Positions 1 through 37,057 of a stretch of DNA of 37,057 bases are shown here, piece after piece. This DNA comes from a virus (Duplodnaviria; Heunggongvirae; Uroviricota; Caudoviricetes), in IMG/VR virus record IMGVR_UViG_2648501920_000014, positions 1-37,057 of that record. One strand, written 5' to 3'. Position 1 is the first letter of the stretch. Each line of letters opens with the position of its first letter. The position numbers and the translations under genes are program-made. The notes beneath the pieces are model-generated. The model was given only the letters and a program-made list of their open reading frames with translations. It did not search any database and was not told the origin of the DNA.

Positions 1-483
1 CTATCTGGTCAGGGTGTCGTACTGTTTTTCACAGACTCTTCCGGCTTCGGCTGCCCGGTCAGCATACTCTGCCAGTTGTCTGTTTCTCTCGAGAGATTTA
101 CTGAGCACGTCGGCAAGCAAAACTCCGGTGTCTGCGGCTGACGTCCCAGCGCCGACAATGGCGTTATACTGCCTGAGCTGCTCACGGATGGCAACGAGCT
201 GTTGCTGCAACCTGCCAGCGCGAGCTGCAGCATCAAGAGCATCATTGCGCGCCTGGTCGATCCTCTGCTGCGCTTCACGTTCATTGATCGCTTTCTCCTG
301 TTCGTAGTGCTGACGAATTCTCTCATCTTCGGTTTTGCGGTCTTCTTTCGCCTGCGCATACCCGGCGTCGTACTGACGACTGCCGTGTACACTCCAGGCA
401 ACAACTCCTGATATGACCAGAACAGCAAGCACCGCCATGATAATCAACTGTTTCCGGTATGCTTTTACGAATGCCAAGATCAT
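1..483 (-). CDS. Rz-like i-spanin (lysis)
   Basis: ATG at 483, stop at 1-3; N-terminal TM helix then Q/R/E/A-rich coiled-coil; last gene of the lysis cassette, overlaps endolysin stop by 4 nt. Confidence 0.6.
9..284 (-). CDS. Rz1-like o-spanin lipoprotein embedded in Rz
   Basis: Alternative frame fully inside Rz; ATG at 284; basic n-region [12 protein letters not shown], hydrophobic core, lipobox LAGC, Ser/Pro/Thr-rich mature part. Start choice uncertain (ATG at 245 also possible). Confidence 0.4.
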   Translation of the reverse strand: MNVKRSRGSTRRAMMLLMLQLALAGCSNSSLPSVSSSGSITPLSALGRQPQTPEFCLPTCSVNLSRETDNWQSMLTGQPKPEESVKNSTTP

Positions 484-1109
484 ACCGCCAGCACCTTACT
501 GGCATTGATGTATCGCGCGCGCCGGTCGTCGATGCCGTTCCGGCCACCATTGATAATCAGAGTTACACGTGCAATATCGCCGGTATACTTCATGCATCCT
601 TTGCTGGCAAAGAACCACGCCGCGCTACGAGCCGCGTATTCGTCCTGCGCCAGCAGTTCAGGACTCTCCAGCAGGTCAACCTTAAGACCGTTTCCACAGT
701 CACGATAGTTATTCAAACCGGTAACCTGGATAAGCCCGCGCCCACGGTAGTTCCAGCCATCACCAGGGGCATTGTTCCCCATGCGTTTGCTGTACACCAG
801 ATTGGCAATCGCTCTCTGGCGCTCAAGTGGCAATGGTGGTTCGCCTGCACGTCGCCCCAATGCGTTGGCCTGTCCCTGAGTGAGACGCCCAGCCCGAACA
901 AAGTTAGCCAGTCCGCTGACGCTGTAGTTGAAATTCTCCTGCAACCGGGTGAAGCCTCCAGACTCATGCCCGACCTGAGCAATAAACATAGCCTGATCTT
1001 CTGGTTTGCTGATACCAAACTCTTTCATCGCAGAAGTTATATGCGAGAACCAGCGTGCGGCCAGTGCCTCGCTGATACCAGCAGCTCGCTGGAATTGTTT
1101 AATCTCCAT
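480..1109 (-). CDS. Endolysin, glycoside hydrolase family 19 (chitinase-like lysozyme)
   Basis: ATG at 1109; motifs [18 protein letters not shown] and NY typical of GH19 phage endolysins; sits between holin candidates and Rz. Confidence 0.8.
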
Positions 1110-1407
1110 GTTTAGACCTCGATACTTTGAAAATTTGAACGACGTTACCGCGCGTTTTAATAACCGCAGCTAGCATGACAGCGTTGATAATGACCTCAGA
1201 TAAATCCACAGCCATTGGCGTACGTAACCAGATTGCATAGGCGACACGAACAGGAATACTGGCCGCAGCAACAATCAGGAAATAAGCAAGCCATCCTCCC
1301 CACCTTCGGTGTTGAGAGCCGTTACGCCGGAATGTGACAACGCGAATTGCTATGCCAGTGCAAATAACTGCATTGGTGATAAGCAAAAAAAACTCATGCG
1401 TTACCAT
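1099..1407 (-). CDS. Small membrane protein, putative holin or antiholin
   Basis: ATG at 1407 preceded by GGGGAG Shine-Dalgarno; 102 aa with hydrophobic helices; immediately upstream of endolysin. Confidence 0.45.
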
Positions 1408-1798
1408 CGTCTTTTCTCCCCGGAATTAACTCGCGTGGATTATCGGAACGGTGATAGAGCCATATACCAATACGCACAGCGACAATTGCTGACACGAATG
1501 CGCCTGCAGAGAAAACAATCCCTTTTTCAAAAGAGTCCTGCGTGATGGTAGGGATCAGGCTGGCTATGCCGATAAGAATTGATGCTGCTGGTTTGTAAAA
1601 GAGAAGGCCGCAAAGAAAGCTGAGCATCGACAGGAGCACCCGGCGACGGATGGGGTACTCTACTGCAGAGGTAACAAAAATTACCGCTCCAGCCAAAGCA
1701 CCCAAAGCAACCTCAGGAGGAACTCCTGCTATCACCGCCGCCAGAGAACTCATGCTAAGCCACTGATTTAAAGTTTCACTGGTTAGTTGAGCTGACAT
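1394..1798 (-). CDS. Putative holin (multi-TM membrane protein)
   Basis: ATG at 1798 with GGTGGA SD (track ORF starts at GTG 1807); about 134 aa with three hydrophobic segments and a charged C-terminus. Confidence 0.45.
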   Translation of the reverse strand: MSAQLTSETLNQWLSMSSLAAVIAGVPPEVALGALAGAVIFVTSAVEYPIRRRVLLSMLSFLCGLLFYKPAASILIGIASLIPTITQDSFEKGIVFSAGAFVSAIVAVRIGIWLYHRSDNPRELIPGRKDDGNA

Positions 1799-2000
1799 GT
1801 TTTCCACCGTTTATATGCATAACAACCTCCTGAACAGTAAAGCATTACGCATAATAAACCATTTATGGTTTTTTGTTACTTTAACATCGTCAATTCCCTG
1901 TTTTTCATGCCGAGAATAAAGCTCACCTTTTACATGACTCTGAAGAAACAAACAGTGAAGAGCAGGTTGAATACCGCACCATTTAATGGCGCGGTAGCAG

Positions 2001-2297
2001 TCAAATAGAGAAATAAACACAAAAACAAAAAACAACAGGAACAGCAAAATCCAACAGACTTCCCACATCCCACACGCGTGGATCAAAACCTCCCCACCAC
2101 GGCATGTTGATACGTTTCCCTTTCCCAAACTTTTCTATCCAGCGATATTCTGCCTGGGTGTGTTCACGCGCAATGAAGAACGTACAACCGGCTATCGCAC
2201 CGTAAGCCCAGTTTCCGGTAAAAATACCAACCAGTACCTGAGCCACAAAAGCGCAAAGCGAGTGAAGAAATGGAGTGACATCAATGCTCTTAATCAT
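2001..2297 (-). CDS. Small hydrophobic membrane protein, function unknown
   Basis: ATG at 2297 overlapping tail fibre stop (ATGA); 98 aa, hydrophobic, AT-rich gene between tail fibre and lysis genes. Confidence 0.4.
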   Translation of the reverse strand: MIKSIDVTPFLHSLCAFVAQVLVGIFTGNWAYGAIAGCTFFIAREHTQAEYRWIEKFGKGKRINMPWWGGFDPRVWDVGSLLDFAVPVVFCFCVYFSI

Positions 2298-4483
2298 GAA
2301 ACTTCCCCATTGGTTGAAAATATGGCTCCTCCAACGCCAAGTGTATTTCGTGTTGTGCTCAACCTCAGAGGGCTGGAGTCAGAATTAGAATATCCTGTAG
2401 CAGAAATAAAAGATCCTCCACTAATAGTCAACTGCGGAACATCGGCTATATCTGAATAAGTTCTGTCAGCAACAGTATTATTTATAGCCACATATGATCC
2501 AAAAAAACTTCTTATTGTTTGGTTTTTAACTTTACTTCCTTCAATGGTTATCCTACTACCACAGTCGGCAATAAATCCTGAATCTGCATCCAGCGTTGCA
2601 TTCATAAAAGAAGCTTCAGATCTCTCTACATCAATCCATCTAATATCTTTTGTGGGATTTGCACCAAATACATGACAAATATTAGAGTTAAACCTTACAC
2701 CATCTTGGAGGTGCATTAATTTTTTTATATCTGTACCCCATAGCCTTGGAAAATTAACAGATGCTCCTGCATGGCAATCAAATCCCAGCTCAGCCCCTGA
2801 GATATCTACAGCCTTTCCTGAAATAACAGCACCAGTGTCTGCATTAACGGCTGTTCCACAATTGCGCATATCATTACCAGCAACATCAACGCAACCCGCA
2901 CCATCAATACGCACACCAAGTGCACATCCATAAAAACCTTTTTCAATATTTGGTTCAAGGACTTTACCACTTGTTTCTGCATCACTTTCTTCAACGTCAT
3001 GTCGTCTTGCATCAACATATGCTGTATGAATGCAGGTTAATCCACGATATGAGCAATGTATAGTTTTATGGTCGCGTATATTAACATTTGAACCATCTCT
3101 TACATTCCATCCTATATAACAATAGCTTGCACTTGACCCCTGAAAATCTGCTTTAACATTATAAATACAATTAACTGACGCAACCGTACTCTCTGTGCAC
3201 CGTTCAAACTTGCTTACAGGCATTGATGCCTTGACATTATTTACCAGTTGCAGGGAAGAGTATCTGCTATAAGAAAAATCACATACGTAATACCCTTCTG
3301 GCATATATGCAGCAACACTTTCCTCATCAGGAGCACATCCGGTATGATATGCACTAATTTTTGCACCAAAACTACCATGAATTCCAACGTAGAACTTTCG
3401 AGCACCTGAATACGGATAGAAATTAAGTTCAGCTTTTTGAGTTACAATAAATGCACAAACATCGCTATCATCTCTATTTTCTTCGATCTGAATAGCAAAT
3501 ACAGGACTTTTTGCTGCATCGCAAATGTAAAATAAATACTTGTATTCGTAATACGTTCTAACGATTTTAGTAAACAAACGAGTGTCAGAGAAAACCACTG
3601 AGTCTTCTGATGTTATTTTAATCCAAGACAAATCAACACCTGAACTGAATTCAATTTGATAGTTGATAATATGCCCGGTCTTAATTCTTATTTCGCAGAA
3701 AGCATTACCACCATCCCACATAGGTCTCATTGACTGGGCTGCAATGATTGCATCTTTGAGTGTAGGGTAATCACCCCATTCGCCAACAGTAATAACAAAA
3801 GTATAATATGAGTTAAAAACAGCGGCATTTTTGCCTTTGGATATCAACTCCTTAATCATAAAAATATTATCTTCGTAATCACAAGGAGAAATTATATCCC
3901 TCATTTTGCTTTGAAATGTTCGTTGTCTTGCCCCGCTTCCTGACGGTATAAACCAACCAAAACCACCAACAACCCCGGCGATTGCAGCATCGACATAATT
4001 ACGCATTGAGCGATTATTTACAGCGTCCTGCTCAAATGATGGATCTGCAAGGTTAGAAATTTTGTTTTGCTTTGCATCGTAATATTTTGCAAGCAAAGAT
4101 GGTTTCATCAATGCACGTCTGAACCACCCAAAACATCGCTGGATCAGCATCGTCAGGTAGTCAAATGCATCTTCATGAACTTCGGGGAAAAATTTTCCCT
4201 GATTGCGAAGATCAGTCTCCTGCACCACATCAAGCACACGCTCTATCGTAATTCGCCAGCCAGCAGCAAGCGGCGACGGGAGAACCACTTCACCGCCACT
4301 ATAAGTGCCCGCTCCAGTTACCTTATAACCGGTATCCAGAACCAATTCTGTTACGTTCCCGTTCAGGTCAGACACCTGAACAACCAGGTCGGTTTTTTTG
4401 AAAATACGGAAGGTATACGGAAATGATGTCGTAACGCCGTTACCGGTGTATTCGTTGTGGTCAACTTCGGTTGAGACCGTCAT
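2294..4483 (-). CDS. Tail fibre / tailspike with T7-type N-terminal anchor and beta-helix-like distal receptor-binding region
   Basis: ATG at 4483; first ~110 aa match the T7 tail-fibre N-terminal pattern; remainder is Gly/Asn/Asp/Val/Ile/Cys-rich and visibly AT-rich. Confidence 0.7.
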   Translation of the reverse strand: MTVSTEVDHNEYTGNGVTTSFPYTFRIFKKTDLVVQVSDLNGNVTELVLDTGYKVTGAGTYSGGEVVLPSPLAAGWRITIERVLDVVQETDLRNQGKFFPEVHEDAFDYLTMLIQRCFGWFRRALMKPSLLAKYYDAKQNKISNLADPSFEQDAVNNRSMRNYVDAAIAGVVGGFGWFIPSGSGARQRTFQSKMRDIISPCDYEDNIFMIKELISKGKNAAVFNSYYTFVITVGEWGDYPTLKDAIIAAQSMRPMWDGGNAFCEIRIKTGHIINYQIEFSSGVDLSWIKITSEDSVVFSDTRLFTKIVRTYYEYKYLFYICDAAKSPVFAIQIEENRDDSDVCAFIVTQKAELNFYPYSGARKFYVGIHGSFGAKISAYHTGCAPDEESVAAYMPEGYYVCDFSYSRYSSLQLVNNVKASMPVSKFERCTESTVASVNCIYNVKADFQGSSASYCYIGWNVRDGSNVNIRDHKTIHCSYRGLTCIHTAYVDARRHDVEESDAETSGKVLEPNIEKGFYGCALGVRIDGAGCVDVAGNDMRNCGTAVNADTGAVISGKAVDISGAELGFDCHAGASVNFPRLWGTDIKKLMHLQDGVRFNSNICHVFGANPTKDIRWIDVERSEASFMNATLDADSGFIADCGSRITIEGSKVKNQTIRSFFGSYVAINNTVADRTYSDIADVPQLTISGGSFISATGYSNSDSSPLRLSTTRNTLGVGGAIFSTNGEVS

Positions 4484-4587: not shown

Positions 4588-4602
4588 TTACCTTTCGGGT
4601 AA
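4588..4602. promoter_or_regulatory. Operator-like inverted repeat TTACC-TTTCG-GGTAA
   Basis: 15-bp dyad with A/T flanks; between tail fibre start (4483) and LexA box; one of at least 14 copies. Confidence 0.4.
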
Positions 4603-4641
4603 TTTGCAAAACGTGCTGGATAGCAAACAAATTATTTGATA

Positions 4642-4657
4642 CTGTATAAATATACAG
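4642..4657. promoter_or_regulatory. LexA (SOS) box CTGTATAAATATACAG
   Basis: Perfect CTGT-N8-ACAG with AT-only spacer, centre of an 18-bp near-palindrome; 21 nt upstream of ATG 4679. Confidence 0.6.
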
Positions 4658-4678
4658 TTATTGCATGGAGAAGATAAG

Positions 4679-4936
4679 ATGCAGCAGTATCACTATCCAC
4701 TGGAAGACGGATTTACCGAAAGGATTCACACGCCGGGAGGCGTCAGGTCACTGGTGGAGGGATCGCACTTGATGAAATTACTCCGGGATCTCGATAAGGA
4801 TGGATTTAATGTCGATGGCCCACTTGCCGAACTGACTGCACTAATTAACTACGTCACCAGCTCACAGATGTCTATGCGGGATCTGCAAACACATCTCGAC
4901 TATTGTGCCGAACAATTACGAAAACAAACCAGATAA
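4679..4936 (+). CDS. Small protein (85 aa), SOS-box-fronted; paralogue of the C-terminal domain of the adjacent Bro-N protein; candidate antirepressor
   Basis: ATG at 4679 with GGAG SD (track ORF begins at TTG 4661); stop TAA 4934-4936; by-eye alignment to Bro-N residues ~165-228. Confidence 0.55.
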   Translation: MQQYHYPLEDGFTERIHTPGGVRSLVEGSHLMKLLRDLDKDGFNVDGPLAELTALINYVTSSQMSMRDLQTHLDYCAEQLRKQTR

Positions 4937-4939: not shown

Positions 4940-4968
4940 TTGCAATTACCAAATGGAGTGCTTATATT
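4940..4968 (+). promoter_or_regulatory. Sigma70-like promoter TTGCAA-17-TATATT
   Basis: -35 TTGCAA 4940-4945, 17-bp spacer, -10 TATATT 4963-4968; operator repeat overlaps the -10 end. Confidence 0.4.
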
Positions 4969-4982
4969 TACCTTTGCGGTAA
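4968..4982. promoter_or_regulatory. Operator-like inverted repeat TTACC-TTTGC-GGTAA
   Basis: 15-bp dyad overlapping the -10/+1 region of the promoter at 4940-4968. Confidence 0.4.
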
Positions 4983-5096: not shown

Positions 5097-5251
5097 TGCG
5101 TTAAGCACAGCTATATCCGAATTATGGTGGGCTGGGCAGGGGTCCGAAAGGACGCCGGTACCACTTAGGCCGGTACGCCAACCTTGTCCAGTTCACCACC
5201 AGTAATTGGCGTTGCGGTGGTGATTAAAATCACTAAGTGGAGATAACCACC

Positions 5252-5962
5252 ATGGCTAATGCTCAAACTGCCATCTTCAAATTTGAATCTGTTAACCCTA
5301 TCCGTTCCATCATTATCGATGGCCAACCATGGTTTGTAGCCCAAGACGTTTGTAGTGCGCTGCGTATCCAAAACGTCACCCAAGCACTTGAAAAACTGGA
5401 TGATGATGAAAGGTCTATGTTCAACATAGGGCATGAACATCGTGCAATTTTTGACAGCCGAGTAAAAGAGATCAACATCATCTCCGAGTCAGGCCTCTAC
5501 ACACTGATCCTCCGCTGCCGCGACGCAGTGACACCAGGCACTATCCCCTACCGCTTTCGTAAATGGGTTACAGGTGAGGTTCTTCCTCAGATCCGCCGCA
5601 CCGGAAGTTACATTAAAAACTCGCTCCCGCAGGAAGAACGCATAAAGATAGTTGCCGACCAGGTAGCCAACGCCACAGCATCAGCAGTGATGCAGGCAAT
5701 GAAGATAGAGAACAAAACCTACAGTGCCCCACTGAAGCCCGGCTACCGCAGCCTGATTCATTCTCCGTCTGGTGTTCTCGGCCTGACGGAGAACTCACTG
5801 CTGATGAATCTGCTGAACCAGTTACAGGAAGACGGGCACGACGTATCGGGCGCGGCGGCGGAGCTGACCACCATGTTCTGCTACATTGTTGGTGTGAGCA
5901 AATGCCTGCGTGATATCCAGACCCACGCGGAGTACATCAACGACAAGGCTGGGTTCTTCTGA
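5252..5962 (+). CDS. Bro-N domain protein (antirepressor-like) with C-terminal domain paralogous to the 4679-4936 product
   Basis: ATG at 5252 with GGAGA SD (track ORF begins at GTG 5237); N-terminal ~115 aa match the Bro-N pattern (WFVAQDVCSALRI, GLYTLIL, FRKWVTGEVLPQIRRTGSY). Confidence 0.7.
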   Translation: MANAQTAIFKFESVNPIRSIIIDGQPWFVAQDVCSALRIQNVTQALEKLDDDERSMFNIGHEHRAIFDSRVKEINIISESGLYTLILRCRDAVTPGTIPYRFRKWVTGEVLPQIRRTGSYIKNSLPQEERIKIVADQVANATASAVMQAMKIENKTYSAPLKPGYRSLIHSPSGVLGLTENSLLMNLLNQLQEDGHDVSGAAAELTTMFCYIVGVSKCLRDIQTHAEYINDKAGFF

Positions 5963-6034: not shown

Positions 6035-6049
6035 TTACCTTAAAGGTAA
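6035..6049. promoter_or_regulatory. Operator-like inverted repeat TTACC-TTAAA-GGTAA
   Basis: Immediately upstream of GGAGG SD and ATG 6062; overlaps the -10 of a TTGCAG-17-TACTAT promoter (6007-6035). Confidence 0.4.
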
Positions 6050-6061: not shown

Positions 6062-6229
6062 ATGACAGCGTTGAAAAATCGTACTCAGCACAATGAACAA
6101 GCCAAGCAATGCTGGGATGTCATTGGAAAAGTTATGCTTGGCCGCGCAAGCAAAGAGCGCGACAAGGATATGGTTTACCAGACAGGAACATCTTTCAGCG
6201 ACTTCAAGGCGGCATTTCGCTCCAAATAG
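6062..6229 (+). CDS. Small protein (55 aa), unknown function; first gene of an AT-rich two-gene cassette
   Basis: ATG at 6062, GGAGG SD at 6051-6055, stop TAG 6227-6229; below the 60-aa track cutoff, read by hand. Confidence 0.4.
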   Translation: MTALKNRTQHNEQAKQCWDVIGKVMLGRASKERDKDMVYQTGTSFSDFKAAFRSK

Positions 6230-6249
6230 AAGCACATCAGGAGTTTTCC

Positions 6250-6690
6250 TTGAAGTTTAACATTAGAATATCTAATAGTTTTCTACATGGGGAAAGCAAC
6301 ACCCCTTTCGCTGTAGACGGACCTTTCCTTACTGATGATGAAATAAAAATCATACAAAGTTTTTTAGAGGATGTTGCCAATGGAAGGGCGCTTGTTGGAA
6401 AAAACAAGCCCTCGTGGGTTGATGATAACCATGATAAAATTCCCGGCTCAGACAATTATGAGCAAGAGAATTATTGGCATTATCATTGTGGGCCAACATG
6501 GTATCCAAACACATTTAAGAATTATACCATTAACTTAAATTTCAACCCTGGCGGAAGGCATTCTAATGAATGCATTCATTATGCAAAAAATGATAATGAA
6601 ATTGTCATTGTTGGATTTTCAAGAGAACACATACCTTTCCTTTCATCAGATGGAAACAACAATCCGCTTTTTAATGATGAAGAAGAATAG
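6250..6690 (+). CDS. Hypothetical protein (~146 aa), acidic C-terminus (NDEEE), AT-rich
   Basis: No internal Met; most plausible start is TTG 6250 with AGGAG SD at 6239-6243 (track ORF begins at ATG 6109, which would overlap the upstream gene); stop TAG 6688-6690. Confidence 0.45.
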   Translation: MKFNIRISNSFLHGESNTPFAVDGPFLTDDEIKIIQSFLEDVANGRALVGKNKPSWVDDNHDKIPGSDNYEQENYWHYHCGPTWYPNTFKNYTINLNFNPGGRHSNECIHYAKNDNEIVIVGFSREHIPFLSSDGNNNPLFNDEEE

Positions 6691-6711
6691 CCCGCGCTGC
6701 GGGCTTTTTTG
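6689..6711 (+). terminator. Rho-independent terminator (AGCCCGC-GCT-GCGGGCT + TTTTT)
   Basis: 7-bp GC-rich stem directly after the 6690 stop, followed by a T-run. Confidence 0.6.
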
Positions 6712-6966: not shown

Positions 6967-6967
6967 T

Positions 6968-7396: not shown

Positions 7397-7405
7397 TGTT
7401 GTTCC

Positions 7406-29578: not shown

Positions 29579-30390
29579 AAGAAATCCTCCCATGCTTCAG
29601 GGCTGTTCCAGTGCGGAACGTTGTTATCAGGTAATGTTGATTGCTTCTGTCTGCTAATCTGCAGCCGCCTTGCCAGCTTCTGCTCCCACTGTGCCTGATG
29701 GTATGCCTTACCCTCAGCCATCCAGTAAATTCTGAACTCTGCAAGTTCCTGTGCCGTTGGCAGACTGTCCAGGTAGATCCCCTGCAATGAGCTTTTCCGA
29801 AGAAAGTCATCTGATGGCTGCCATTGTTCATGCATGACAAATTTGCCTAATTGCCCTGGCCCACCAGGAGGAACAAAGTTATTCATCACGGCGTTGTTTG
29901 CGCCGGGGTCATGATGCACAGAATCCCCGTTTTTTGTCCTGCTCTCCCTCTCTTGGTTAAATGACTGGTTATATGACTGGTTCTGGATCCCGTTTTTGGG
30001 ATCATTCAACATCCCGTTTTTGGGATCATTCAACATCCCGTTTTTGGGTATATTCCCGTTTTCGGTAACATTACCGTTTTCGGGTTCATTACCCCCTTCC
30101 CGGTTGCCTTTAATGTTCCCGTTTTTGGTTATATTAAGAGAGAAAACCCGCACTCTTTTCGTCGCTCCCTTTCTCTCTCCGGTATCTGAAATAAGCCCCA
30201 TTTTCATGAGTGATATAAGCCCGGCCTGCACGGTTTTTTTATTCAGGCAAGTGTCTTTAACGAGGCGTTCTATGCTGGGGTAGCAGAGGTTATATTCATC
30301 GGCTCTGTCAGCCATCGAGAGCAGTATGAGCTTTAATGACGAGCTACCTGGATCTGTCTCCCAGGCCCAATCTGTTGCATGTCTGCTCAT
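29575..30390 (-). CDS. Replication initiator (O-like), N-terminal HTH domain, iterons inside the gene
   Basis: ATG at 30390; repeated PKNGMLND peptide is encoded by the DNA iterons; immediately upstream of the P-like gene. Confidence 0.65.
   Translation of the reverse strand: MSRHATDWAWETDPGSSSLKLILLSMADRADEYNLCYPSIERLVKDTCLNKKTVQAGLISLMKMGLISDTGERKGATKRVRVFSLNITKNGNIKGNREGGNEPENGNVTENGNIPKNGMLNDPKNGMLNDPKNGIQNQSYNQSFNQERESRTKNGDSVHHDPGANNAVMNNFVPPGGPGQLGKFVMHEQWQPSDDFLRKSSLQGIYLDSLPTAQELAEFRIYWMAEGKAYHQAQWEQKLARRLQISRQKQSTLPDNNVPHWNSPEAWEDFL
29987..30135. repeat. Origin-like iterons: ATCCCGTTTTTGGGATCATTCAAC x2 perfect plus 4 degenerate CCGTTTT(T/C)GG cores
   Basis: Perfect 24-bp tandem copies at 29987-30010 and 30011-30034; degenerate cores follow; AT-rich stretch at 30129-30148; ATGACTGGTT direct repeats at 29961-29982. 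Confidence 0.6.
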
Positions 30391-30405
30391 GATTAATCTC
30401 CGCTA

Positions 30406-30606
30406 TCAGCTTGAATGTTGTGGGGAGGAATTAATCATGATCTGCTTAATCTCTGCCCTGATGCGACGGTTTGATTCCATGGTGCACTCAACACAGTGTC
30501 CGTTGTAAACCCAGCGTTCACTGTCATGTCCGTGCTTACATGTTTTTCCGGTGTAGTAGCGTTTAAGTCCGCGCTTTGCGGCATCAATACGTGTAATGAT
30601 TTCCAT
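30406..30606 (-). CDS. Small zinc-binding protein (66 aa; C/H cluster) in the cII position
   Basis: ATG at 30606 with AGGG SD (track ORF extends to TTG 30669); CKHGH...HCVEC cluster; between cro-like and O-like genes. Confidence 0.45.
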   Translation of the reverse strand: MEIITRIDAAKRGLKRYYTGKTCKHGHDSERWVYNGHCVECTMESNRRIRAEIKQIMINSSPQHSS

Positions 30607-30686
30607 GGTAAGCCCTGTTATTAGTATTGGGATTACGGTCATTTTGTGCTGACACAAAAAAAAGATCAACCAGATTTGGTTTTTTA

Positions 30687-30701
30687 TTACCTTTGAGGTA
30701 C
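30687..30701. promoter_or_regulatory. Operator-like inverted repeat TTACC-TTTGA-GGTAC
   Basis: One mismatch in the right half-site; between the cro terminator and the zinc-binding protein gene. Confidence 0.35.
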
Positions 30702-30710
30702 GAATAGATA

Positions 30711-30734
30711 TGAAAAGACCGCCGGGTGGCGGTC
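30711..30734 (-). terminator. Hairpin GACCGCC-GGGT-GGCGGTC with TTTT on the minus strand (tR1-like)
   Basis: 7-bp perfect stem just downstream of the cro-like stop (30757), followed on the minus strand by TTTTCA. Confidence 0.5.
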
Positions 30735-30756
30735 TACAGAGGGTTGTGGCTGGATA

Positions 30757-30987
30757 TCATGAGTAGAAGAAGTATGCCAGTTCTGCTTTTGAGCGCAGCC
30801 ATTGTCTTGTTTTACAGGCTTTAAAAAGCCCATTCATCAATACTTTACCTGGCATTTTGCGCTTACCTGTTAAGTGAGTCTGGATATAGTGACTCGTCGT
30901 TCCGGCTTCCTGTGCGAAGGCTTCACGCTCATCCGGAGTAAGTGCAAGCCAGTGCTTTTTGAAATCGAAATGTCCGTTATCGCTCAT
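30757..30987 (-). CDS. Cro-like / CII-like HTH regulator (76 aa)
   Basis: ATG at 30987; HTH-like LTPDEREAFAQEAGTTSHYIQTHLTGKR; divergent from the repressor across the operator cluster. Confidence 0.5.
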   Translation of the reverse strand: MSDNGHFDFKKHWLALTPDEREAFAQEAGTTSHYIQTHLTGKRKMPGKVLMNGLFKACKTRQWLRSKAELAYFFYS

Positions 30988-31023
30988 AGCTATTGCCTGA
31001 TATTTATTTCAGATAATAAATAT

Positions 31024-31086
31024 TCACCCATAAGGTAACAAAAATCAAGGATAGTTACCTATGAGGTGCATTTACCTGTTGGGTAA
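31024..31086. promoter_or_regulatory. Operator cluster (OR-like): three inverted repeats between the cro-like and repressor genes
   Basis: TCACC-CATAA-GGTAA (31024-31038), TTACC-TATGA-GGTGC (31055-31069), TTACC-TGTTG-GGTAA (31072-31086); last two abut. Confidence 0.5.
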
Positions 31087-31141
31087 TATTGCTTTAAATT
31101 GAATCATCTACTGATTCATATATGAGGCGATTTTCCAGAAA

Positions 31142-31726
31142 ATGAAAAGTATCCAGGACGTCCGCAGGCAAAATCTCAACGACTTGATCGACCGTGAATT
31201 CAATGGTGTTCAGACGCGGATGGCAGAAAAACTTGGAACTCAGGCAAATCTGGTAAACCGCTGGGCTCTTGGCAAGAAGGTTATCGGCGACCAGGTTGCG
31301 CGAAAAATTGAAGCTGCCGCCAATAAACCACGTAACTGGCTTGATATCGATCGCTCGCTTTCTCAGGAAGGTTTTCAGCCTGTCGGCCCAAGCGACATTG
31401 GTCAGCTGGCGGCTCACAACCTGGAACGCTGGATGAGCGAAAGCCGCGACCTTTCAACACAGGGAAAACTTCACCGCGCATCCGGCGTCGCCCAGGTGAC
31501 AATCAGCCGCCTGTTAAACAATGAGGTCAGCGTTTCCATTTCCACCCTGGAGAATGTTGCATCCGCATTCGGGCGTCACGGCTATGAATTACTGATTCAC
31601 CCGCACGACCCTGCGACCATCAACTATGACCGCTCGCGCTACGCATTGTTACCCGAAACCGAGAAAGCAAAGATCGAAAGTTACATTGAATTTGTCATCA
31701 ACCAGAACGAAAAAAACAAACAATAA
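31142..31726 (+). CDS. Phage repressor with two HTH domains and no S24 autocleavage domain
   Basis: ATG at 31142; two HTH-like segments (LGTQANLVNRWALGKKVIGDQVARKIEAAANKPRNWLD and ASGVAQVTISRLLNNEVSVSISTLENVASAFG); no Ala-Gly cleavage site or Ser/Lys dyad seen; stop TAA 31724-31726. Confidence 0.65.
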   Translation: MKSIQDVRRQNLNDLIDREFNGVQTRMAEKLGTQANLVNRWALGKKVIGDQVARKIEAAANKPRNWLDIDRSLSQEGFQPVGPSDIGQLAAHNLERWMSESRDLSTQGKLHRASGVAQVTISRLLNNEVSVSISTLENVASAFGRHGYELLIHPHDPATINYDRSRYALLPETEKAKIESYIEFVINQNEKNKQ

Positions 31727-31746
31727 AATCATATTTTTCAGTAAGT

Positions 31747-31771
31747 AAGCCGCCTTATGGCGGCTTTTTTA
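31747..31771 (+). terminator. Rho-independent terminator after the repressor gene
   Basis: AAGCCGCC-TTAT-GGCGGCTT followed by TTTT. Confidence 0.65.
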
Positions 31772-31783
31772 TTGCCCATGAAA

Positions 31784-31860
31784 TTACCTTACGGGTAATT
31801 TTTTTAACTCATATCTATTGACATCAAACCAAATACGAATAATCATTACCTCAACGGTAA
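31784..31860. promoter_or_regulatory. OL-like region: two operator repeats flanking a TTGACA promoter
   Basis: TTACC-TTACG-GGTAA (31784-31798), -35 TTGACA (31818-31823), TTACC-TCAAC-GGTAA (31846-31860) over the likely -10/+1; followed by GAGG SD and ATG 31880. Confidence 0.5.
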
Positions 31861-31879
31861 CAAGCCGAGGTAACAAGTT

Positions 31880-32032
31880 ATGCAGTGGAAAATCATCAAC
31901 GGTTGGTACTGCGTTACTGCATGCGGATTCATGAGCTGGAAGTTCCGCACCTTACAGGAAGGCATTAAGTGGGCTTTCGTCAGCAAAGAAGCTCGCGATG
32001 TGGCCAACGATAACGAGATATGGGAGGGCTGA
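31880..32032 (+). CDS. Small protein (50 aa), first gene of the early recombination operon
   Basis: ATG at 31880 with GAGG SD; hand-translated MQWKIINGWYCVTACGFMSWKFRTLQEGIKWAFVSKEARDVANDNEIWEG; stop TGA 32030-32032. Confidence 0.35.
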   Translation: MQWKIINGWYCVTACGFMSWKFRTLQEGIKWAFVSKEARDVANDNEIWEG

Positions 32033-32034
32033 TA

Positions 32035-32334
32035 ATGAACGTTAATCAGCAGAAAAATCTTCAAAAAATCATGCTGGCATTCGACAAGGACTACCGCCTG
32101 TCAGAACAGCTATATGACCGACAAGTTGAACTGATCGAGAGCATCCGGCTTCATCAACTAGCCTCAACTTTCGACGCTGTAACAGGTAAAGGCGTTCGCC
32201 AGGAAGTACTGGAGGCCGCTAAAGACAGTCCAGAGTTCGAAGAACTGATGGATTCCTACCGGCGCGAGGCAATGGCAATTATCGCCCGCTGGGATCTGGC
32301 TGATCAGCTTGATGGACAGAGGGACGCGGCATGA
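32035..32334 (+). CDS. Hypothetical protein (99 aa)
   Basis: ATG at 32035 with GGGAGGG SD (track ORF starts at ATG 32020); ATGA overlap with the next gene. Confidence 0.5.
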   Translation: MNVNQQKNLQKIMLAFDKDYRLSEQLYDRQVELIESIRLHQLASTFDAVTGKGVRQEVLEAAKDSPEFEELMDSYRREAMAIIARWDLADQLDGQRDAA

Positions 32335-33230
32335 TGCGGAACGCTGGAATCATGGATAGAACAAAATACATCGGAGGAAGCGATGTTGCAGGGATTCTTG
32401 GAATTAGCCCATGGCGCACCCCGCTTGAGGTTTATCTGGATAAGGTACAGCCACGTGTCAAACCAGTAGACCCAAGCAAGCAGAAAGTTTTCACGCGTGG
32501 CCAGCGTATGGAGCCATACGTAATAGACCTGCTTTCTGAGGAAACAGGGATGGAAATCGTTCATCGCGGAAACCGCTATATCCACCGTGATTACGATTTT
32601 ATTGCAGCTGAGATCGATGCAGAAGCAGCGTCAGGCGAGAACATTGAGATCAAAACAGTTAGTCCGTTCAAAGCCAAAGAATGGGGAGAAATCCAGACAG
32701 ATGCAATTCCTGTGCATTACACGGCCCAGGCCATGCACGGGTTGATGGTTACAAACAAACAGGTATGCGTTTTCGGTGTGCTTATCGGTGGCGACGACTT
32801 CCGAATCTATCGGGTTGAGCGTGATGAAGAAACTATCCAGGCAATCTTAGAAAAAGAAATCGCTTTCTGGGACCGAGTGAAAAATCTTAACCCGCCGGAA
32901 GCTACCAGCGTAAGCGATATATCGCTGATGTTTGAGAAAGATGCCGGGACAAGTATCGAGGCTGACGGAAAGGCACTCGCACTATTCAACGATCTACGAG
33001 ACATGAAGTCACGCAGAAAATCACTGGAAGAAGAAATAGCTATATCAGAAGAGAAGCTGAAGATGTACATGCAAGAGCACTCAGTCCTGACCCTGGACGG
33101 AAAGCCGCTCTGCACATGGAAATCTCAGATCAGCAACAGATTCGACCAGAAGCTATTCCAGTCAGTACACCCTGAGTTATTCGAAAAATTCAAAACAACA
33201 ACGACACAACGCGTCTTCAGAATGAAGTAA
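32331..33230 (+). CDS. YqaJ-like recombination exonuclease
   Basis: ATG at 32331 with GAGGGA SD; N-terminal motif IGGSDVAGILGISPWRTPLEVY typical of YqaJ-type exonucleases; followed by RecT. Confidence 0.75.
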   Translation: MMRNAGIMDRTKYIGGSDVAGILGISPWRTPLEVYLDKVQPRVKPVDPSKQKVFTRGQRMEPYVIDLLSEETGMEIVHRGNRYIHRDYDFIAAEIDAEAASGENIEIKTVSPFKAKEWGEIQTDAIPVHYTAQAMHGLMVTNKQVCVFGVLIGGDDFRIYRVERDEETIQAILEKEIAFWDRVKNLNPPEATSVSDISLMFEKDAGTSIEADGKALALFNDLRDMKSRRKSLEEEIAISEEKLKMYMQEHSVLTLDGKPLCTWKSQISNRFDQKLFQSVHPELFEKFKTTTTQRVFRMK

Positions 33231-33239
33231 GGAGAAAAA

Positions 33240-34262
33240 ATGTCTATCAATGCACTTAAGGCAGCGGCTACCGGTAACCAAGTTGCACATCATAATGAGA
33301 AACCAACAACTCTGGCCGGACTTCTGGCAGACCCAAAAATTAAAGCTCAGATGGCTTTGGCACTTCCAAAGCACATGACAGCAGACCGTCTGGCGCGCAT
33401 AGCAACCACAGAGATCCGAAAGGTTCCAAAACTTGCATCATGCGACCAAGCCAGCTTCCTGGGGGCAATTATGCAATGTGCCCAATTGGGTCTTGAACCA
33501 GGCGGAGCTCTTGGACACGCTTACCTGATACCGTTCGACAAACGCCAGAAAGTAAATGGAAGATGGGAAACCGTATCTACAGAAGCACAGCTGATTATCG
33601 GCTATCGCGGAATGATTGACCTTGCCCGCCGCTCTGGGCAGATCCTGAGTATCTCGGCTCGTACCGTACATACAAACGACAAATTCAGCTACTCATACGG
33701 CCTGGAAGAAACGCTCGAGCATTTACCTTGCGAAACAGGTGACCGCGGAGAATTAACGCACGTTTACGCCGTTGCACGACTGAAAGATGGCGGAGTCCAA
33801 TTTGAAGTTATGAGCCGGGCAGACATTGAGAAAGTTCGTGCACTGAGCAAAGCCGGTAGCAGTGGCCCATGGGTTGATCACTTCGATGAGATGGCTAAAA
33901 AAACAGTAATTCGCCGACTATTCAAATATCTTCCTGTTTCTATTGAAATGCAGAAGGCTGTTGTTATGGATGAGCGCGCTGAAGCTGGACTTAGCCAAGA
34001 TAACGCAGCTGTTATCACTGGTGAATATTCCGTAGTTGACGATGAGCGTCAACACCTGTCGCCAATTTCAGATTCAGAACGAGAAGAAGCTCGAGAATAT
34101 ATCATCGCGATACTTAATAGCCTGGATCCATCTGCTGAAGATGCAAAAACGATGTTCAAGCGCGCTGAAAATGAGATTAACACCATGGCTGAAAAGCTCG
34201 GTGATGAATATCACCAAAAATTCATGATGACGCTTAACGATATGCGTCCAGAATTCGAGTAA
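33240..34262 (+). CDS. RecT-family single-strand annealing protein
   Basis: ATG at 33240 with GGAG SD; RecT-like core (YLIPFDKRQ, IIGYRGMIDLARRSG, SSGPWVDHFDEMAKKTVIRRLFKYLP). Confidence 0.8.
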   Translation: MSINALKAAATGNQVAHHNEKPTTLAGLLADPKIKAQMALALPKHMTADRLARIATTEIRKVPKLASCDQASFLGAIMQCAQLGLEPGGALGHAYLIPFDKRQKVNGRWETVSTEAQLIIGYRGMIDLARRSGQILSISARTVHTNDKFSYSYGLEETLEHLPCETGDRGELTHVYAVARLKDGGVQFEVMSRADIEKVRALSKAGSSGPWVDHFDEMAKKTVIRRLFKYLPVSIEMQKAVVMDERAEAGLSQDNAAVITGEYSVVDDERQHLSPISDSEREEAREYIIAILNSLDPSAEDAKTMFKRAENEINTMAEKLGDEYHQKFMMTLNDMRPEFE

Positions 34263-34311
34263 CCACCACCGCGGCGCCACACGCGCCGCACTGCAACCAA
34301 GAGAGGTATTT

Positions 34312-34560
34312 ATGAAAGGTGCATTAGGTAAGAAGGAACTCCTGGCGGTGGTGCCACTGTCATGGAGCACTATCGATCGTATGGAGCGCGCAGGGGAATT
34401 TCCTAAACGCTGGTATATCACCGATAAACGCTGCGCATGGAACCGTGATGAAGTTGAGCGTTGGCTTGATGAACGTCAGGCAGCAAGCCCGGCAGAGTTC
34501 CAGGGTAAAAAACCTCCTGTTCAGCAACGTGTATATCGTCCCGTGAGCAACGCGGCATGA
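34312..34560 (+). CDS. AlpA/Xis-like HTH protein (excisionase or transcriptional regulator)
   Basis: ATG at 34312 with GAGAGG SD; motif LSWSTIDRMERAGEFPKRWYITDKRCAWNRDEVERWL typical of the AlpA family. Confidence 0.7.
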   Translation: MKGALGKKELLAVVPLSWSTIDRMERAGEFPKRWYITDKRCAWNRDEVERWLDERQAASPAEFQGKKPPVQQRVYRPVSNAA

Positions 34561-34669
34561 GTGTGCTGCTAAGGCACTGGAGCAAATGGTCAGGATGGTA
34601 CTTATTCCTGGCCTCTGTTTCAGCATGGCTTTATCTGCTGGCATTAATTTTCAGAGAGGGTTGGATTAA

Positions 34670-34969
34670 GTGAGAAAGTTAAGCCGACTTGAAAAATATC
34701 ACATGAACAAGGTTTCAATGCGCAGTCCGTCAAAGATTGTCGCCGTTACTCCTGCGGCGATAGAGATCGAAAAACGCGCGATTGAAAGAGAGAAAAAAGG
34801 GCAGTTCCGCATTGCCGCTCACCTTTGGCTTCAGTGTATGGATGTTGCTTCTGGTGATGTTGAGCGTGCAAGGATCGCGGTTCGCAGGGACCAATGTATC
34901 ACAAAAGGTAACGGCCTTCGCCGTGGCGACTATAGCGGCATAGGATGTTGTGGGGTGGTTTATGACTAA
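34670..34969 (+). CDS. Hypothetical protein (99 aa)
   Basis: GTG start at 34670 with GAGAGGG SD (internal ATG at 34703 also possible); stop TAA 34967-34969. Confidence 0.4.
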   Translation: MRKLSRLEKYHMNKVSMRSPSKIVAVTPAAIEIEKRAIEREKKGQFRIAAHLWLQCMDVASGDVERARIAVRRDQCITKGNGLRRGDYSGIGCCGVVYD

Positions 34970-35612
34970 GAAATACACACTAATCTATGCAGATCCACCC
35001 TGGGTATACCGGGACAAAGCCGCAGATGGTAATCGCGGTGCCGGTTTTAAATATCCGGTTATGAGTGTGCTGGATATCTGCCGCCTTCCTGTGTGGGATT
35101 TGGCCGATGAAAACTGTCTGTTGGCCATGTGGTGGGTGCCAACACAACCACTCGAAGCACTAAAAGTTGTTGAGGCCTGGGGATTCCGTCTGATGACCAT
35201 GAAGGGATTCACGTGGATAAAATGTGGTAGTCGACAACCAGATAAACTGGTTATGGGTATGGGTCACATGACTCGCGCCAATAGTGAAGATTGCCTGTTT
35301 GCAGTAAAGGGAAAACTACCTACGCGCATTAATGCAGGGATCGTTCAGTCATTTACCGCACCGCGGCTTGAGCATTCAAGAAAACCAGATATCGTTCGTG
35401 AAAAACTTGTGCAATTGTTAGGCGATGTTTCTCGCATTGAACTGTTCGCCCGCCAGTCGTCTCATGGTTTCGATGTTTTGGGTAATCAGTGCGAAGACCC
35501 GGCAGTGCAACTACACCCTGGATACGCGTTGGATATTGCCAGATTAACAAATGCATTCAGCAATGCTCCGCTGTCACCAACAGACAACCAGGGGCGGGAG
35601 CGTGCAGCATGA
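34962..35612 (+). CDS. MT-A70 family N6-adenine DNA methyltransferase
   Basis: ATG at 34962 (track ORF starts at GTG 34950); DPPW motif in IYADPPWVY; ATGA overlap with the next gene. Confidence 0.75.
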   Translation: MTKKYTLIYADPPWVYRDKAADGNRGAGFKYPVMSVLDICRLPVWDLADENCLLAMWWVPTQPLEALKVVEAWGFRLMTMKGFTWIKCGSRQPDKLVMGMGHMTRANSEDCLFAVKGKLPTRINAGIVQSFTAPRLEHSRKPDIVREKLVQLLGDVSRIELFARQSSHGFDVLGNQCEDPAVQLHPGYALDIARLTNAFSNAPLSPTDNQGRERAA

Positions 35613-35803
35613 ACAGGGCATCACCATCAGATTTAAGGAAATGCCTTGAAACTGCAAACATGCTTGCACACAGCGGGATCAGGTTTGTTCCAATTCCCGC
35701 TGTCACTGATGCTGAATTTGCAACACTGTCAGCAATATTCACAGATAAAATTGAATCACTGGCAGCAGAAGCCGAGATGGAAGAAAATCAGCAGAATAAT
35801 TAA
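35609..35803 (+). CDS. Hypothetical small protein (64 aa)
   Basis: ATG at 35609 overlapping methyltransferase stop; stop TAA 35801-35803; convergent with integrase. Confidence 0.45.
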   Translation: MNRASPSDLRKCLETANMLAHSGIRFVPIPAVTDAEFATLSAIFTDKIESLAAEAEMEENQQNN

Positions 35804-35806
35804 ACG

Positions 35807-37057
35807 TTATTCCCCCGCCATCCACTTCTCAAACTTCGACGGGGAGAACGGAATCAGATCCGTATGCTCCCCGTTAATCCAGGAATCAATCATATCGGCC
35901 CACTGCTGCAACATGTAGGCGCGCTGTCTGGCGTATTCCGCTTTGTTATATACGGCGCGCACACCTTTCTGCTCATGTGCCAGAGCCTTTTCAATCCAGT
36001 CTGAAGGATAACCAGCCTCATGCAACAACGTACTGGCTGTACGGCGCATATCGTGTACGGTGAAATCCTGAATATGCTCACCATCTTCATTTATTATTTT
36101 CACCGTTCTGTCGATCAGAGAGTTCAGCGCGGCATTAGATAATGGCTTCCGGAAATTGTAACGACCAGGAACCAGATATTCACTTCCACCAGCGCACATC
36201 TGCAACCCGACCAATATATCCTGAGCCTGTTTAGGCAGGTAAATAACATGCGCCCGGCTTCCCTTCATGCGGTCTGAAGGAATTGTCCATGTCCATTTTT
36301 TAAAATCTATTTCATCCCACGTTGCATTGGTGAATTCGCCCTTACGAACCATAGTGATAAGCACCAGTTTTAAAGCCATTTTCATAGTGCCCATAGCACC
36401 AATGGCATCCAACGTGCGGAAGAACAGGCCAATTTCTTCTGGTGTCAGTGTTCGCTCTCGTGGTTTAAATATGGCGATAGACGAAGGCTTAATGTCAGCC
36501 GCAGGATTAAACAAACCATGACCACGGTCATTGGCGTGACGGTATACGCTGCTGATGATCTCCCTGGCCTGCACTGCTGTTGCCCGGCCACCGCGTTCGA
36601 CAATCCGGTCACACAAATCACGAACCATCGATGTGGTAATTTCAGCCATCATTTTGTTGCCAAGAACCGGAAGTATGTCACGGTCGATCACTGCCTGCTT
36701 CATTGCGCGGGTACTTTCAGCCAGGATGACGTGTTTCATATAACTGTCGGTATGTACCGCAAACGTTTCGGCACCACGAATCTTTTTGATACCGTCACGT
36801 TTAGCCGCAGCCGGTGACTGGCCTGCTTTAAGCAGCTTCTTTGCAGCAATCAGTTCTTCCCGCGCTTCTGCCAGGCTGATACCGTCACGCCCATACTGCC
36901 CGATTACCAGTGTTTCGCGGCGACCGTTGATACGGTAGTCATAACGAAATGAGACCGTGCCTGACGTAAGCACAGCTACATACAGCCCGTCACGATCGGA
37001 GACCTTGTACAGTTTGTCCTGCGGCTTGAGGTTTTTTAATTTTGTATCGGTAAGCAC
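35807..37057 (-). CDS. Tyrosine integrase (phage integrase family), 5' end at the window edge
   Basis: N-terminal arm-type motif LTDTKLKNLKPQDKLYKVSDRDGLYV; C-terminal catalytic region with HDMRRT; first codon at the last window bases is GTG, so 1-2 codons may be missing. Confidence 0.85.
   Translation of the reverse strand: MLTDTKLKNLKPQDKLYKVSDRDGLYVAVLTSGTVSFRYDYRINGRRETLVIGQYGRDGISLAEAREELIAAKKLLKAGQSPAAAKRDGIKKIRGAETFAVHTDSYMKHVILAESTRAMKQAVIDRDILPVLGNKMMAEITTSMVRDLCDRIVERGGRATAVQAREIISSVYRHANDRGHGLFNPAADIKPSSIAIFKPRERTLTPEEIGLFFRTLDAIGAMGTMKMALKLVLITMVRKGEFTNATWDEIDFKKWTWTIPSDRMKGSRAHVIYLPKQAQDILVGLQMCAGGSEYLVPGRYNFRKPLSNAALNSLIDRTVKIINEDGEHIQDFTVHDMRRTASTLLHEAGYPSDWIEKALAHEQKGVRAVYNKAEYARQRAYMLQQWADMIDSWINGEHTDLIPFSPSKFEKWMAGE

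Follow-up and report, generated by a model that had tools for sequence, protein, structure and literature searches.

A phiV10-like Uetakevirus prophage with repressor operator motifs before early, late and antirepressor genes, and candidate elements of its late control

Introduction

The DNA stretch considered here, IMG/VR record IMGVR_UViG_2648501920_000014, comprises 37,057 nucleotides (positions 1 to 37,057; the whole stretch is called the window in this paper) and is almost certainly a nearly complete prophage of a phiV10-like Uetakevirus, that is, of an epsilon15-like temperate podophage, bounded on one side by the integrase gene and on the opposite side by the lysis cassette. Phages of the epsilon15 and phiV10 type have been sequenced since 2005-2007, and cryo-electron microscopy (cryo-EM) structures of them exist. 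Both the architecture and the group are already known from a described genus and near-identical sequenced isolates, and the identification as stated is a rediscovery with nothing new. A first-pass annotation, made from the sequence without database searches, had described a temperate phage that combines a T7-ordered virion module with lambda-type regulation and replication. Here, the gene content, the operator sites and the possible elements of late control are described and compared with known systems.

Identity and Prevalence

The window contains 152 open reading frames (ORFs) of at least 60 amino acids, the long ones mostly on the minus strand. In megablast searches of phage records, positions 7000-30000 were 97.7% identical to PAS61 over 92%, 97.5% identical to the O157 typing phages 9 and 10 over 92%, 97.7% identical to phiv142-3 over 91%, and 97.5% identical to phiV10 over 81%. 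The segment 1-7500 was closest to HEMP4 (99.1% identity over 94%), the left arm (29500-37057) was about 98% identical to phiV10 and its relatives, and Salmonella phage epsilon15 showed about 76% DNA identity to positions 7000-30000 (megablast). Both phiV10 and epsilon15 are classified members of Uetakevirus. Membership at the genus level is drawn at about 70% nucleotide identity over most of the genome, and the window lies well above this value with its 97.5-97.7% identity to phiV10 and PAS61 over 81-92% of positions 7000-30000. Of the 55 phiV10 proteins, 45 could be mapped collinearly to the window, mostly with 94-100% identity. Nothing found in the window contradicts its identification as a Uetakevirus prophage.

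Position 1 is the stop codon of the Rz gene and position 37057 is the start codon of the integrase gene, so the window presents a prophage in its integrated order from which both att sites have been trimmed off. The integrase, a tyrosine recombinase with a P4-type arm-binding domain (35807-37057, minus strand; PF13356, PF00589), is 99.5% identical to that of phiV10, and its att sites lie outside the window. In one E. coli copy, a related prophage is located between guaA and yfgI and is flanked by a 17-bp repeat, ATTGAGTGGGAATGATT, that overlaps the guaA stop codon. Phage ZX5, temperate and seen to be short-tailed by electron microscopy, integrates at the 3' end of guaA and has the same 17-bp att core (PMC9782041). 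Phages of this type are common in E. coli, and at least 212 of 5,426 complete genomes hold at least 80% of positions 1-25000 of the window.

Packaging, Head and Tail Genes

The genes described in this section all lie on the minus strand. The terminase genes precede the portal gene, as the first-pass annotation had proposed: terS (25629-26225; Pfam Terminase_2, E 2e-29), the ORF of which is open to 26303, and terL (24157-25632; phrog_2). A small ORF, p06 (22861-23067), is found just upstream of the portal gene (21167-22846), and the portal protein belongs to the T7 gp8 family (PF12236, E 2e-187) and matches the portal of PDB 8ck0 (E 1e-178). The head module that follows (18340-21170; PF21190, PF20911, PF25181 and phrog_458) encodes a Bbp19-like protein (20874-21170), a scaffold-like protein of 231 residues (20176-20871), the major capsid protein (19175-20161; PF20911, epsilon15 GP7, E 2e-149), a Bbp16-like cement protein (18686-19123; PF21190, E 5e-48) and a protein of 111 residues (18340-18675), the last two being additional small capsid genes between the capsid and adaptor genes. 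The capsid protein together with a Bbp16-type cement protein (PF20911, PF21190) represents the Uetakevirus-type set. The capsid protein is closer to the solved capsid of Bordetella phage BPP-1 (PDB 3j4u, E 1e-128) than to epsilon15 gp7 (3j40, E 2e-85), and it also matches the solved capsid of Carin-1. The 231-residue protein carries the database label 'protease', and no peptidase domain was detected in it by Pfam or NCBIfam and no match by PDB sequence search; it is acidic and helical with a proline-rich N-terminus, and a scaffold role is plausible. Between the genes for capsid and cement and those for adaptor and nozzle lies a GC-rich hairpin, GGGGCTTCGGCCCC, with TTTATT after it (18300-18330, minus strand), an arrangement reminiscent of the T-phi terminator after T7 gene 10.

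The tail machine begins with a head-to-tail adaptor of 201 residues at the position of T7 gp11 (17678-18283), which matches the 'Connector Protein' of PDB 8ck1_E (E 4e-26), phrog_394 and phrog_9239 ('tail tubular protein'), and continues with a tail nozzle of 823 residues at the gp12 position (15207-17678; 'Tail Nozzle' of PDB 8ck1_A, E 2e-216; phrog_376, 'tail protein'). Two small internal virion proteins are encoded next (14198-15207; phrog_418 and phrog_308, 'internal virion protein'): one of 181 residues belongs to the T7 gp14 family (PF24072 T7_gp14, E 2.5e-7), and one of 154 residues at the gp13 position has a weak match to PF11090 T7_Gp13 (E 0.088). The large virion or ejection proteins lie at the T7 gp15-gp16 position (6983-14198; phrog_684, phrog_1145 and phrog_992) and are 97-98% identical to phiV10 p18-p20. 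They include a protein of 837 residues with a transglycosylase-like region (11685-14198), matched by PHROGs for head protein, transglycosylase and endolysin; a protein of 600 residues (9886-11688) matched by PHROGs of unknown function only; a protein of 824 residues (7406-9880) matched by a virion-structural PHROG; and a protein of 137 residues (6983-7396). The epsilon15 record reports an HHpred match of gp15 to a lytic transglycosylase and of gp11 to T7 tail tubular protein A (NC_004775). NCBIfam gave no match for the structural proteins.

The claimed correspondence of the gene order, from portal to tail fibre, with T7 gp8 to gp17 is borne out, since all the listed elements are present and their sizes track closely. 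At the sequence level the relation is distant: BLAST and phmmer comparisons of the virion proteins with T7 gp8-gp19 returned marginal matches only, at the detection limit, and the adaptor and nozzle showed no pairwise or Pfam similarity to T7 gp11 and gp12. The homology check proposed for the capsid, portal and tail-tube candidates was run and returned the epsilon15/BPP-1/Carin-1 podophage set, as predicted. A siphovirus or myovirus structural set would have spoken against a podophage, and no tape-measure or sheath family was the best match of any gene; the sole tape-measure name was a weak secondary PHROG match on the 837-residue protein. The description as a temperate podovirus-like phage is thereby upheld, the homologues of capsid, portal and tail tube being from podophages and the near-identical isolates being short-tailed and temperate. 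A short-tailed virion can be inferred from the homology of portal, adaptor and nozzle to those of solved podophage tails and from the ZX5 micrographs. Taken with the fibre described below, these matches show a predicted virion in which an HK97-fold capsid of the epsilon15/BPP-1 type is joined to a portal-adaptor-nozzle-core machine of the T7 lineage, and the tailspike is docked through its conserved N-terminal domain.

Tailspike and Lysis Genes

The tail fibre or tailspike (2294-4483, minus strand; phrog_5662) has 729 residues; its N-domain (residues 1-200), which binds the particle, is conserved, and its C-terminal part, which binds the receptor, is variable. Many tailspike PHROGs match it over residues 1-166/206 only, and no match of the C-terminal part was found by PDB sequence search. 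The N-domain is clearly homologous (E 1e-32) to D1, the domain by which Dpo31, the tailspike of Carin-1, is anchored to the virion. The proposal that the N-terminus is of the T7 type finds weak support. In hhalign, the N-domain profile gave a collinear alignment of 122 columns to T7 gp17 (residues 1-150/160, including DAxxxRIxNL...DA), with E 0.007 but a probability of 5%. Phage_T7_tail (PF03906) is the only Pfam match of the fibre, and its score is below threshold (16.4 bits against a curated cut-off of 25.2, E 0.0076); PF03906 was found in none of the homologues of the fibre N-domain.

The lysis genes follow the tail fibre gene, as had been noted in the first-pass annotation, and all are on the minus strand. 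They encode two holin-type membrane proteins (Phage_holin_8, 1394-1798, and Phage_holin_3_7, 1099-1407), an endolysin of glycoside hydrolase family 19 (480-1109; PF00182; 97% identical to phiV10 p29) and, as the last lysis gene, an Rz-like spanin (DUF2514; 1-483; PF10721, E 2e-41; 91% identical to phiV10 p30), in which Rz1 is embedded (about 12-284; 94% identical to phiV10 p30a). The lysis cassette has no TTACC-N5-GGTAA site, the operator motif described below, of its own in the window, and it is probably co-transcribed with the fibre gene.

Cargo Between terL and the Portal Operon

In the interval that separates terL from the portal operon, the plus strand carries a gene for tRNA-Arg(TCT) (23495-23571) and an ORF for a Tad2-like protein (Thoeris anti-defence 2; 23770-24066; PF11195, E 3e-24), the place of which is taken by another gene, p03, in phiV10. 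The counterpart of phiV10 p04 is an ORF (23504-23752, minus strand) that overlaps the tRNA-Arg gene on the opposite strand and two plus-strand terminator-like hairpins, and it may not be a real gene.

Repressor, Early Operons and Replication

The control region is built around a divergent pair of regulatory genes. The repressor gene (31142-31726, plus strand) encodes 194 residues with an HTH_3 domain, 100% identical to the phiV10 repressor, and is followed by a terminator (31747-31766, plus strand); only HTH families were matched, and no Peptidase_S24 domain was detected in the repressor. On the minus strand, a Cro-like gene (30757-30987; phrog_35, 'transcriptional repressor') and a terminator after it (30716-30735) are succeeded by a p42-like ORF of 66 residues (30406-30606), a DnaT/HTH_36 initiator gene at the position of lambda O (29575-30390; PF17948, PF13730) and a helicase loader gene of the lambda P family (28793-29593; PF06992, E 1.5e-56). 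The 'nin-like' block comes next on the same strand and consists of a DUF1064 gene (28331-28675), an eae-like gene (27712-28269), an Ead/Ea22 gene with DUF551 (27134-27715) and an ASCH-like gene (26860-27141). Tblastn with lambda P matched the loader at E 5e-32, and none of the other lambda proteins used, namely cI, cro, cII, N, O and Q, had a match in the window. The earlier description of lambda-type regulation and replication thus holds for the layout only; among these lambda proteins homology is confined to P, and the gene in the O position does not belong to the lambda O family.

The recombination and excision operon is headed by a strong, PL-like promoter candidate, TTGACA-17-AATCAT (31818-31846, plus strand). 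This early-left operon (31880-35803, plus strand) begins with two small ORFs and encodes, on the same strand, a YqaJ-type exonuclease (32331-33230), RecT (33240-34262), an AlpA-type excisionase or regulator (34312-34560), a PerC-family activator (34703-34969), an MT-A70 adenine methylase (34962-35612) and a DUF1382 protein (35609-35803). The ORFs p39 and p38, at the position of lambda N, were considered as N-like factors and rejected, having neither an arginine-rich motif nor a family match.

An antirepressor module is encoded on the plus strand beyond the fibre gene. A near-consensus LexA (SOS) box, TACTGTATAAATATACAGTT (4640-4659, plus strand), is located about 20 nucleotides upstream of a p24-like ORF (4679-4936), after which come a gene for a Bro-N antirepressor (5237-5962; PF02498, E 1e-19) and ORFs of 193 and 77 amino acids (6109-6690 and 6711-6944). 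Because the repressor has no self-cleavage domain, SOS induction would be expected to proceed via this LexA-controlled module, and the arrangement suggests induction through the antirepressor rather than through self-cleavage of the repressor. In ZX5, overexpression of the identical repressor lowered the holin and endolysin transcripts by more than 99.9%, and overexpression of the antirepressor promoted lytic growth (PMC9782041).

Operator Sites

The operator network assumed in the first-pass annotation is real. The motif TTACC-N5-GGTAA occurs in 10 exact copies in the window (0.01 expected), or 13 with one mismatch allowed, and the copies stand before early, late and antirepressor units, so that almost all transcription units begin with one. 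Every operator adjoins or overlaps a -10-like hexamer.

In the control region, two operators are found at OR, one with a mismatch inside the spacer of the PR promoter TTGTTA-17-TATTAT (31024-31038) and one exact (31072-31086), and two surround the PL-like promoter (31784-31798 and 31846-31860). A further site with one mismatch follows the cro terminator (30687-30701). In the nin-like region, one operator covers the ribosome-binding site of the DUF1064 gene (28679-28693), and one fills the spacer of a promoter-like TCGATA-16-TAAAAT (28741-28755). At the late genes, an exact site (26243-26257) and a site with one mismatch (26225-26239) reach the terS ATG, and another lies upstream of the portal operon (23158-23172). 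The remaining sites are in the divergent region between the fibre and p24-like genes (4588-4602), before the Bro-N gene, where the operator adjoins a -10-like TATATT (4968-4982), and before the plus-strand ORF of 193 residues (6035-6049). At terS, an extended -10-like TGgTACTAT ends on the first T of the operator, the same geometry as that of AATCAT at PL.

The operator motif is present at equivalent places in phiV10, PAS61 and epsilon15. The epsilon15 GenBank record (NC_004775) already annotates such positions as 'protein_bind: repressor', namely 12-27 for the terS site, 2931-2947 for the portal site and 19895-19911 for the site between the fibre and p24-like genes. Outside the window, an operator-like TTACCTTAAAGGTAT with one mismatch was observed upstream of the integrase gene of a prophage in E. 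coli ECCNB12-2 (L003, approximately 3520-3535); with such a site there, the repressor may also reach the int promoter.

The following scheme would account for these positions. In the lysogen, the 194-residue HTH repressor would occupy the operators at PR, at PL, after cro, in the nin-like region and at the terS, portal, fibre and antirepressor units, so that the late genes would be silenced directly by the repressor and not via a regulator cascade. Induction would then proceed through the LexA-controlled antirepressor module.

The Late-Operon Leader and the RHH-Cys4 Regulator

The first-pass annotation had recognised no Q-type antiterminator, and the searches agree: the Q family was absent from the Pfam scan of about 55 ORFs, and the Q proteins of lambda and N15 had no tblastn match below E 4. 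The late promoters look weak, with no -35 element, and a terminator precedes terS. This intrinsic terminator (26277-26294, minus strand) lies in the late-operon leader, between the early-right operon and terS, and the leader is conserved in more than 70 related loci. Upstream of the leader is the homologue of epsilon15 gp49 and phiV10 p55 (26522-26867, minus strand), which is split in the window by a 1-nucleotide deletion at about 26734. The intact protein, encoded by the last of the conserved early genes, has 112 residues and is assigned to phrog_536 ('transcriptional regulator'). Searches of Pfam and NCBIfam placed it in no family; its relatives form 176 clusters and include N15 gp46. A structure prediction from a 52-sequence alignment (predicted local distance difference test, pLDDT, 91) gave a ribbon-helix-helix (RHH) fold in the model, followed by a conserved four-cysteine knuckle, for which the protein is here called the RHH-Cys4 regulator. 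An earlier model from 14 close homologues (pLDDT 56) was discarded. Foldseek found no significant PDB match for the model, and the sole match in BFVD was a fragment belonging to this family.

A small ORF of phrog_1541 (26300-26533, minus strand; 70-77 amino acids) separates the regulator gene from the terminator before terS. This ORF is reduced to an 8-codon remnant (MHDEFDGF) in phiV10 and PAS61, and the short form would therefore be a deletion derivative. In four other relatives (L065-L067 and L072, IMG/VR), an insert of 300-350 nucleotides was observed between the regulator gene and terS, carrying a perfect LexA box, TACTGTGTATTTATACAGTA, and a promoter-like TTGAC site of its own; the insert looks like an SOS-controlled moron.

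The perfect 12-bp palindrome GTGACATGTCAC is the only repeated 12-nucleotide palindrome in the window and occurs in three exact copies, and the looser form GTGAC-N2-GTCAC is expected there 0.02 times. One copy contains the regulator stop codon (26522-26533); another lies just downstream of terL (24071-24082) and adjoins a hairpin (24087-24106); the third (6968-6979, minus strand) stands where the virion operon ends, just before an intrinsic terminator (6950-6967). The same three positions are occupied in epsilon15 and PAS61. Around 11 distant members of the regulator family, sampled from N15, a Mu-like phage and lambdoid-like contigs, 11 copies of GTGAC-N2-GTCAC were found in 74 kb against about 0.07 expected, with at least one copy in 7 of the 11 loci and the site often at the stop codon of the gene itself. 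It was also observed that each copy of GTGACATGTCAC in the window adjoins a hairpin or terminator and borders variable cargo. A reading of the palindrome as a CRP site was rejected because the half-site spacing is wrong. From the pattern of sites, the RHH-Cys4 regulator likely pairs with this palindrome.

Alternative Explanations

Some points weigh against the scheme of direct silencing by the repressor in a fully active prophage. The pairing of operators with the repressor is inferred from their position and from the epsilon15 annotation. The promoters called match the consensus weakly, and sigma-70-like sites were less numerous in the window than in shuffled sequence. The frameshifted regulator gene and the absence of gp10, considered below, bear on whether this copy makes particles. 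As for the proposal that late control is exerted by operators rather than by antitermination, it fits the operator sites and the lack of Q and remains unproven. With an intrinsic terminator and a conserved RHH gene directly upstream of terS, control by read-through or by an activator may also operate, and the likeliest additional input to late timing would be the small RHH-Cys4 protein encoded there. In a stronger form of this idea, the late genes would be switched on by an unrecognised antiterminator or activator and not by simple derepression: the RHH-Cys4 protein, as the candidate, would bind GTGAC-N2-GTCAC beside the terminators and let transcription into terS and beyond. The conserved terminator between the regulator gene and terS speaks for it, as do the regulator stop codon inside the palindrome, the other copies beside hairpins after terL and after the last virion gene with the same arrangement in epsilon15, the excess of the motif around distant family members, and the RHH DNA-binding fold of the predicted model; in two lambdoid-type contigs, moreover, a family member is found just upstream of the lysis and terminase genes, at the usual place of Q. 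Against this, N15 has a true Q (gp40) in addition to the family member gp46, which lies away from the late promoter, the positions of the sites in distant relatives vary (inside the gene, upstream or 2 kb away), RHH proteins are usually repressors, and the binding of the regulator to the site is a prediction from sequence. Such a switch is possible but rather doubtful; direct silencing by the repressor, lifted upon induction, is the main reading, and derepression may account for late control only in part. The broader suggestion that the RHH-Cys4 family is a sequence-specific regulator of GTGAC-N2-GTCAC that sets late timing or read-through in place of Q is likewise tentative; if it were true, the prophage in the window, with its frameshifted regulator gene, would be a natural late-regulator mutant. 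Literature searches returned nothing relevant on late regulation in epsilon15-like phages or on the GTGACATGTCAC palindrome.

Whether the copy is still active was considered from its two irregularities. The deletion in the regulator gene removes one nucleotide from a C-run, which has 4 bases where relatives have 5, and splits the gene into two ORFs. It is shared by none of the 327 complete E. coli genomes that carry the region and is either an inactivating mutation private to this copy or an error of sequencing. The gene of the gp10 staple is absent from its site, that of phiV10 p13 (18284-18342, minus strand), leaving a clean alignment gap of about 320 nucleotides, and tblastn with phiV10 p13, the equivalent of epsilon15 gp10, found no match in the window. 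The gp10 'capsid staple' of epsilon15 has been described (PMC12391199). Both irregularities would fit a defective (cryptic) prophage that no longer makes infectious particles, and yet no other gene is disrupted, each of them aligning over its full length with a phiV10 protein, the single-base change in the C-run may be a sequencing error, and the regulator may not be essential. In addition, the identical gp10-less junction is present in the isolated podophage EC.W1-9 and in 111 E. coli genome records at 99% identity or more, so it is a viable natural variant, gp10 is not universal in the Uetakevirus group, and the staple is dispensable in a natural sub-lineage. A defective copy is accordingly considered unlikely. 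Far less probable still, and in our judgement close to negligible, is the notion that a virion module from T7-like phages (Autographiviridae) and a lambdoid control module were recently combined into a chimera. The gene order and protein sizes that follow T7 gp8 to gp17, the portal and gp14 family matches, and the 90-95% DNA identity of the 'nin-like' accessory genes to Stx and lambdoid phages could be cited in its favour. However, pairwise comparisons with the T7 proteins gave similarity no higher than the detection limit, the capsid protein is a member of the epsilon15/BPP-1 family rather than that of T7 gp10, and no phage RNA polymerase family was found in the ORFs scanned, which included every ORF of more than 300 residues. 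The same architecture is kept in epsilon15, phiV10, Tyrion and Klebsiella relatives, which argues for an old and stable lineage. The window is thus best read as a typical Uetakevirus prophage.

Significance

The practical value of the analysis lies in annotation: the prophage is named, its tailspike marks O-antigen specificity, and a Tad2-like, anti-Thoeris cargo gene is recognised. The analysis also touches on the question of how late genes are timed in a temperate podophage without Q, to which no answer was found in the literature searched. Concrete candidates for such timing are provided by the mapped operators, the terminator that precedes terS, and the RHH regulator together with the palindrome. 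The one thread that might be worth further work is the uncharacterised RHH-Cys4 regulator with its palindrome.

Comparison With Known Systems

The closest systems are phiV10 (NC_007804), PAS61, phiv142-3, ZX5, HEMP4, EC.W1-9 and the O157 typing phages 9 and 10, which share 97-99% DNA identity with most of the window in the same gene order. The likeness to the phiV10 group extends to the identical repressor, the integrase at 99.5%, the same operator motif and, in the relatives, the guaA integration site. The window differs from phiV10 in the C-terminal part of the tailspike, which implies a different O-antigen specificity, in the lack of an oac O-acetyltransferase gene, and in the cargo around the antirepressor region and upstream of terS. 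It also has separate YqaJ and RecT genes, and phiV10 p37 has no match. The type member epsilon15 (NC_004775; cryo-EM, PDB 3J40) has the same architecture and protein families, with TTACC-N5-GGTAA upstream of terS, gp3 and the tail fibre gene and at OL, and its repressor was reported to be 42% identical (PMC9782041). It differs by its serotype-conversion genes, its genes for gp10 and RuvC, and a cytosine methylase that takes the place of P.

With T7, the window shares the collinear order and similar sizes of the virion genes, the portal and gp14 families, and a weak similarity of the fibre N-domain to residues 1-150 of gp17. In T7, the terminase genes are at the end and the HK97-fold capsid protein is of a different family; the window, in contrast, has extra cement proteins and a transglycosylase in the protein at the gp15 position, and it is temperate. 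The solved relative Carin-1, a podophage of Cobetia marina (PDB 8CK0, 8CK1 and 8CJZ), has homologous portal, adaptor, nozzle, capsid and tailspike N-domain (E 1e-26 to 1e-216) and differs in its marine host and in the body of its tailspike.

The lambdoid phages resemble the window in the divergent repressor and cro genes, the PL- and PR-like promoters, the terminator after cro, the P loader, the nin-like block and the pair of integrase and excisionase. Unlike them, the window has no homologues of Q, N, cII or O and a repressor without S24, its operators extend to the late and antirepressor promoters, and its antirepressor module has a LexA box in front of it. The distribution of one repressor motif over many transcription units, including late ones, is known from the 'stoperators' bound by gp71 of mycobacteriophage L5 and from the conserved inverted repeats of Streptomyces phage phiC31. 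The sites in the window differ from these in being symmetric, few (10-13) and overlapping with -10 elements, rather than acting as oriented roadblocks inside operons.

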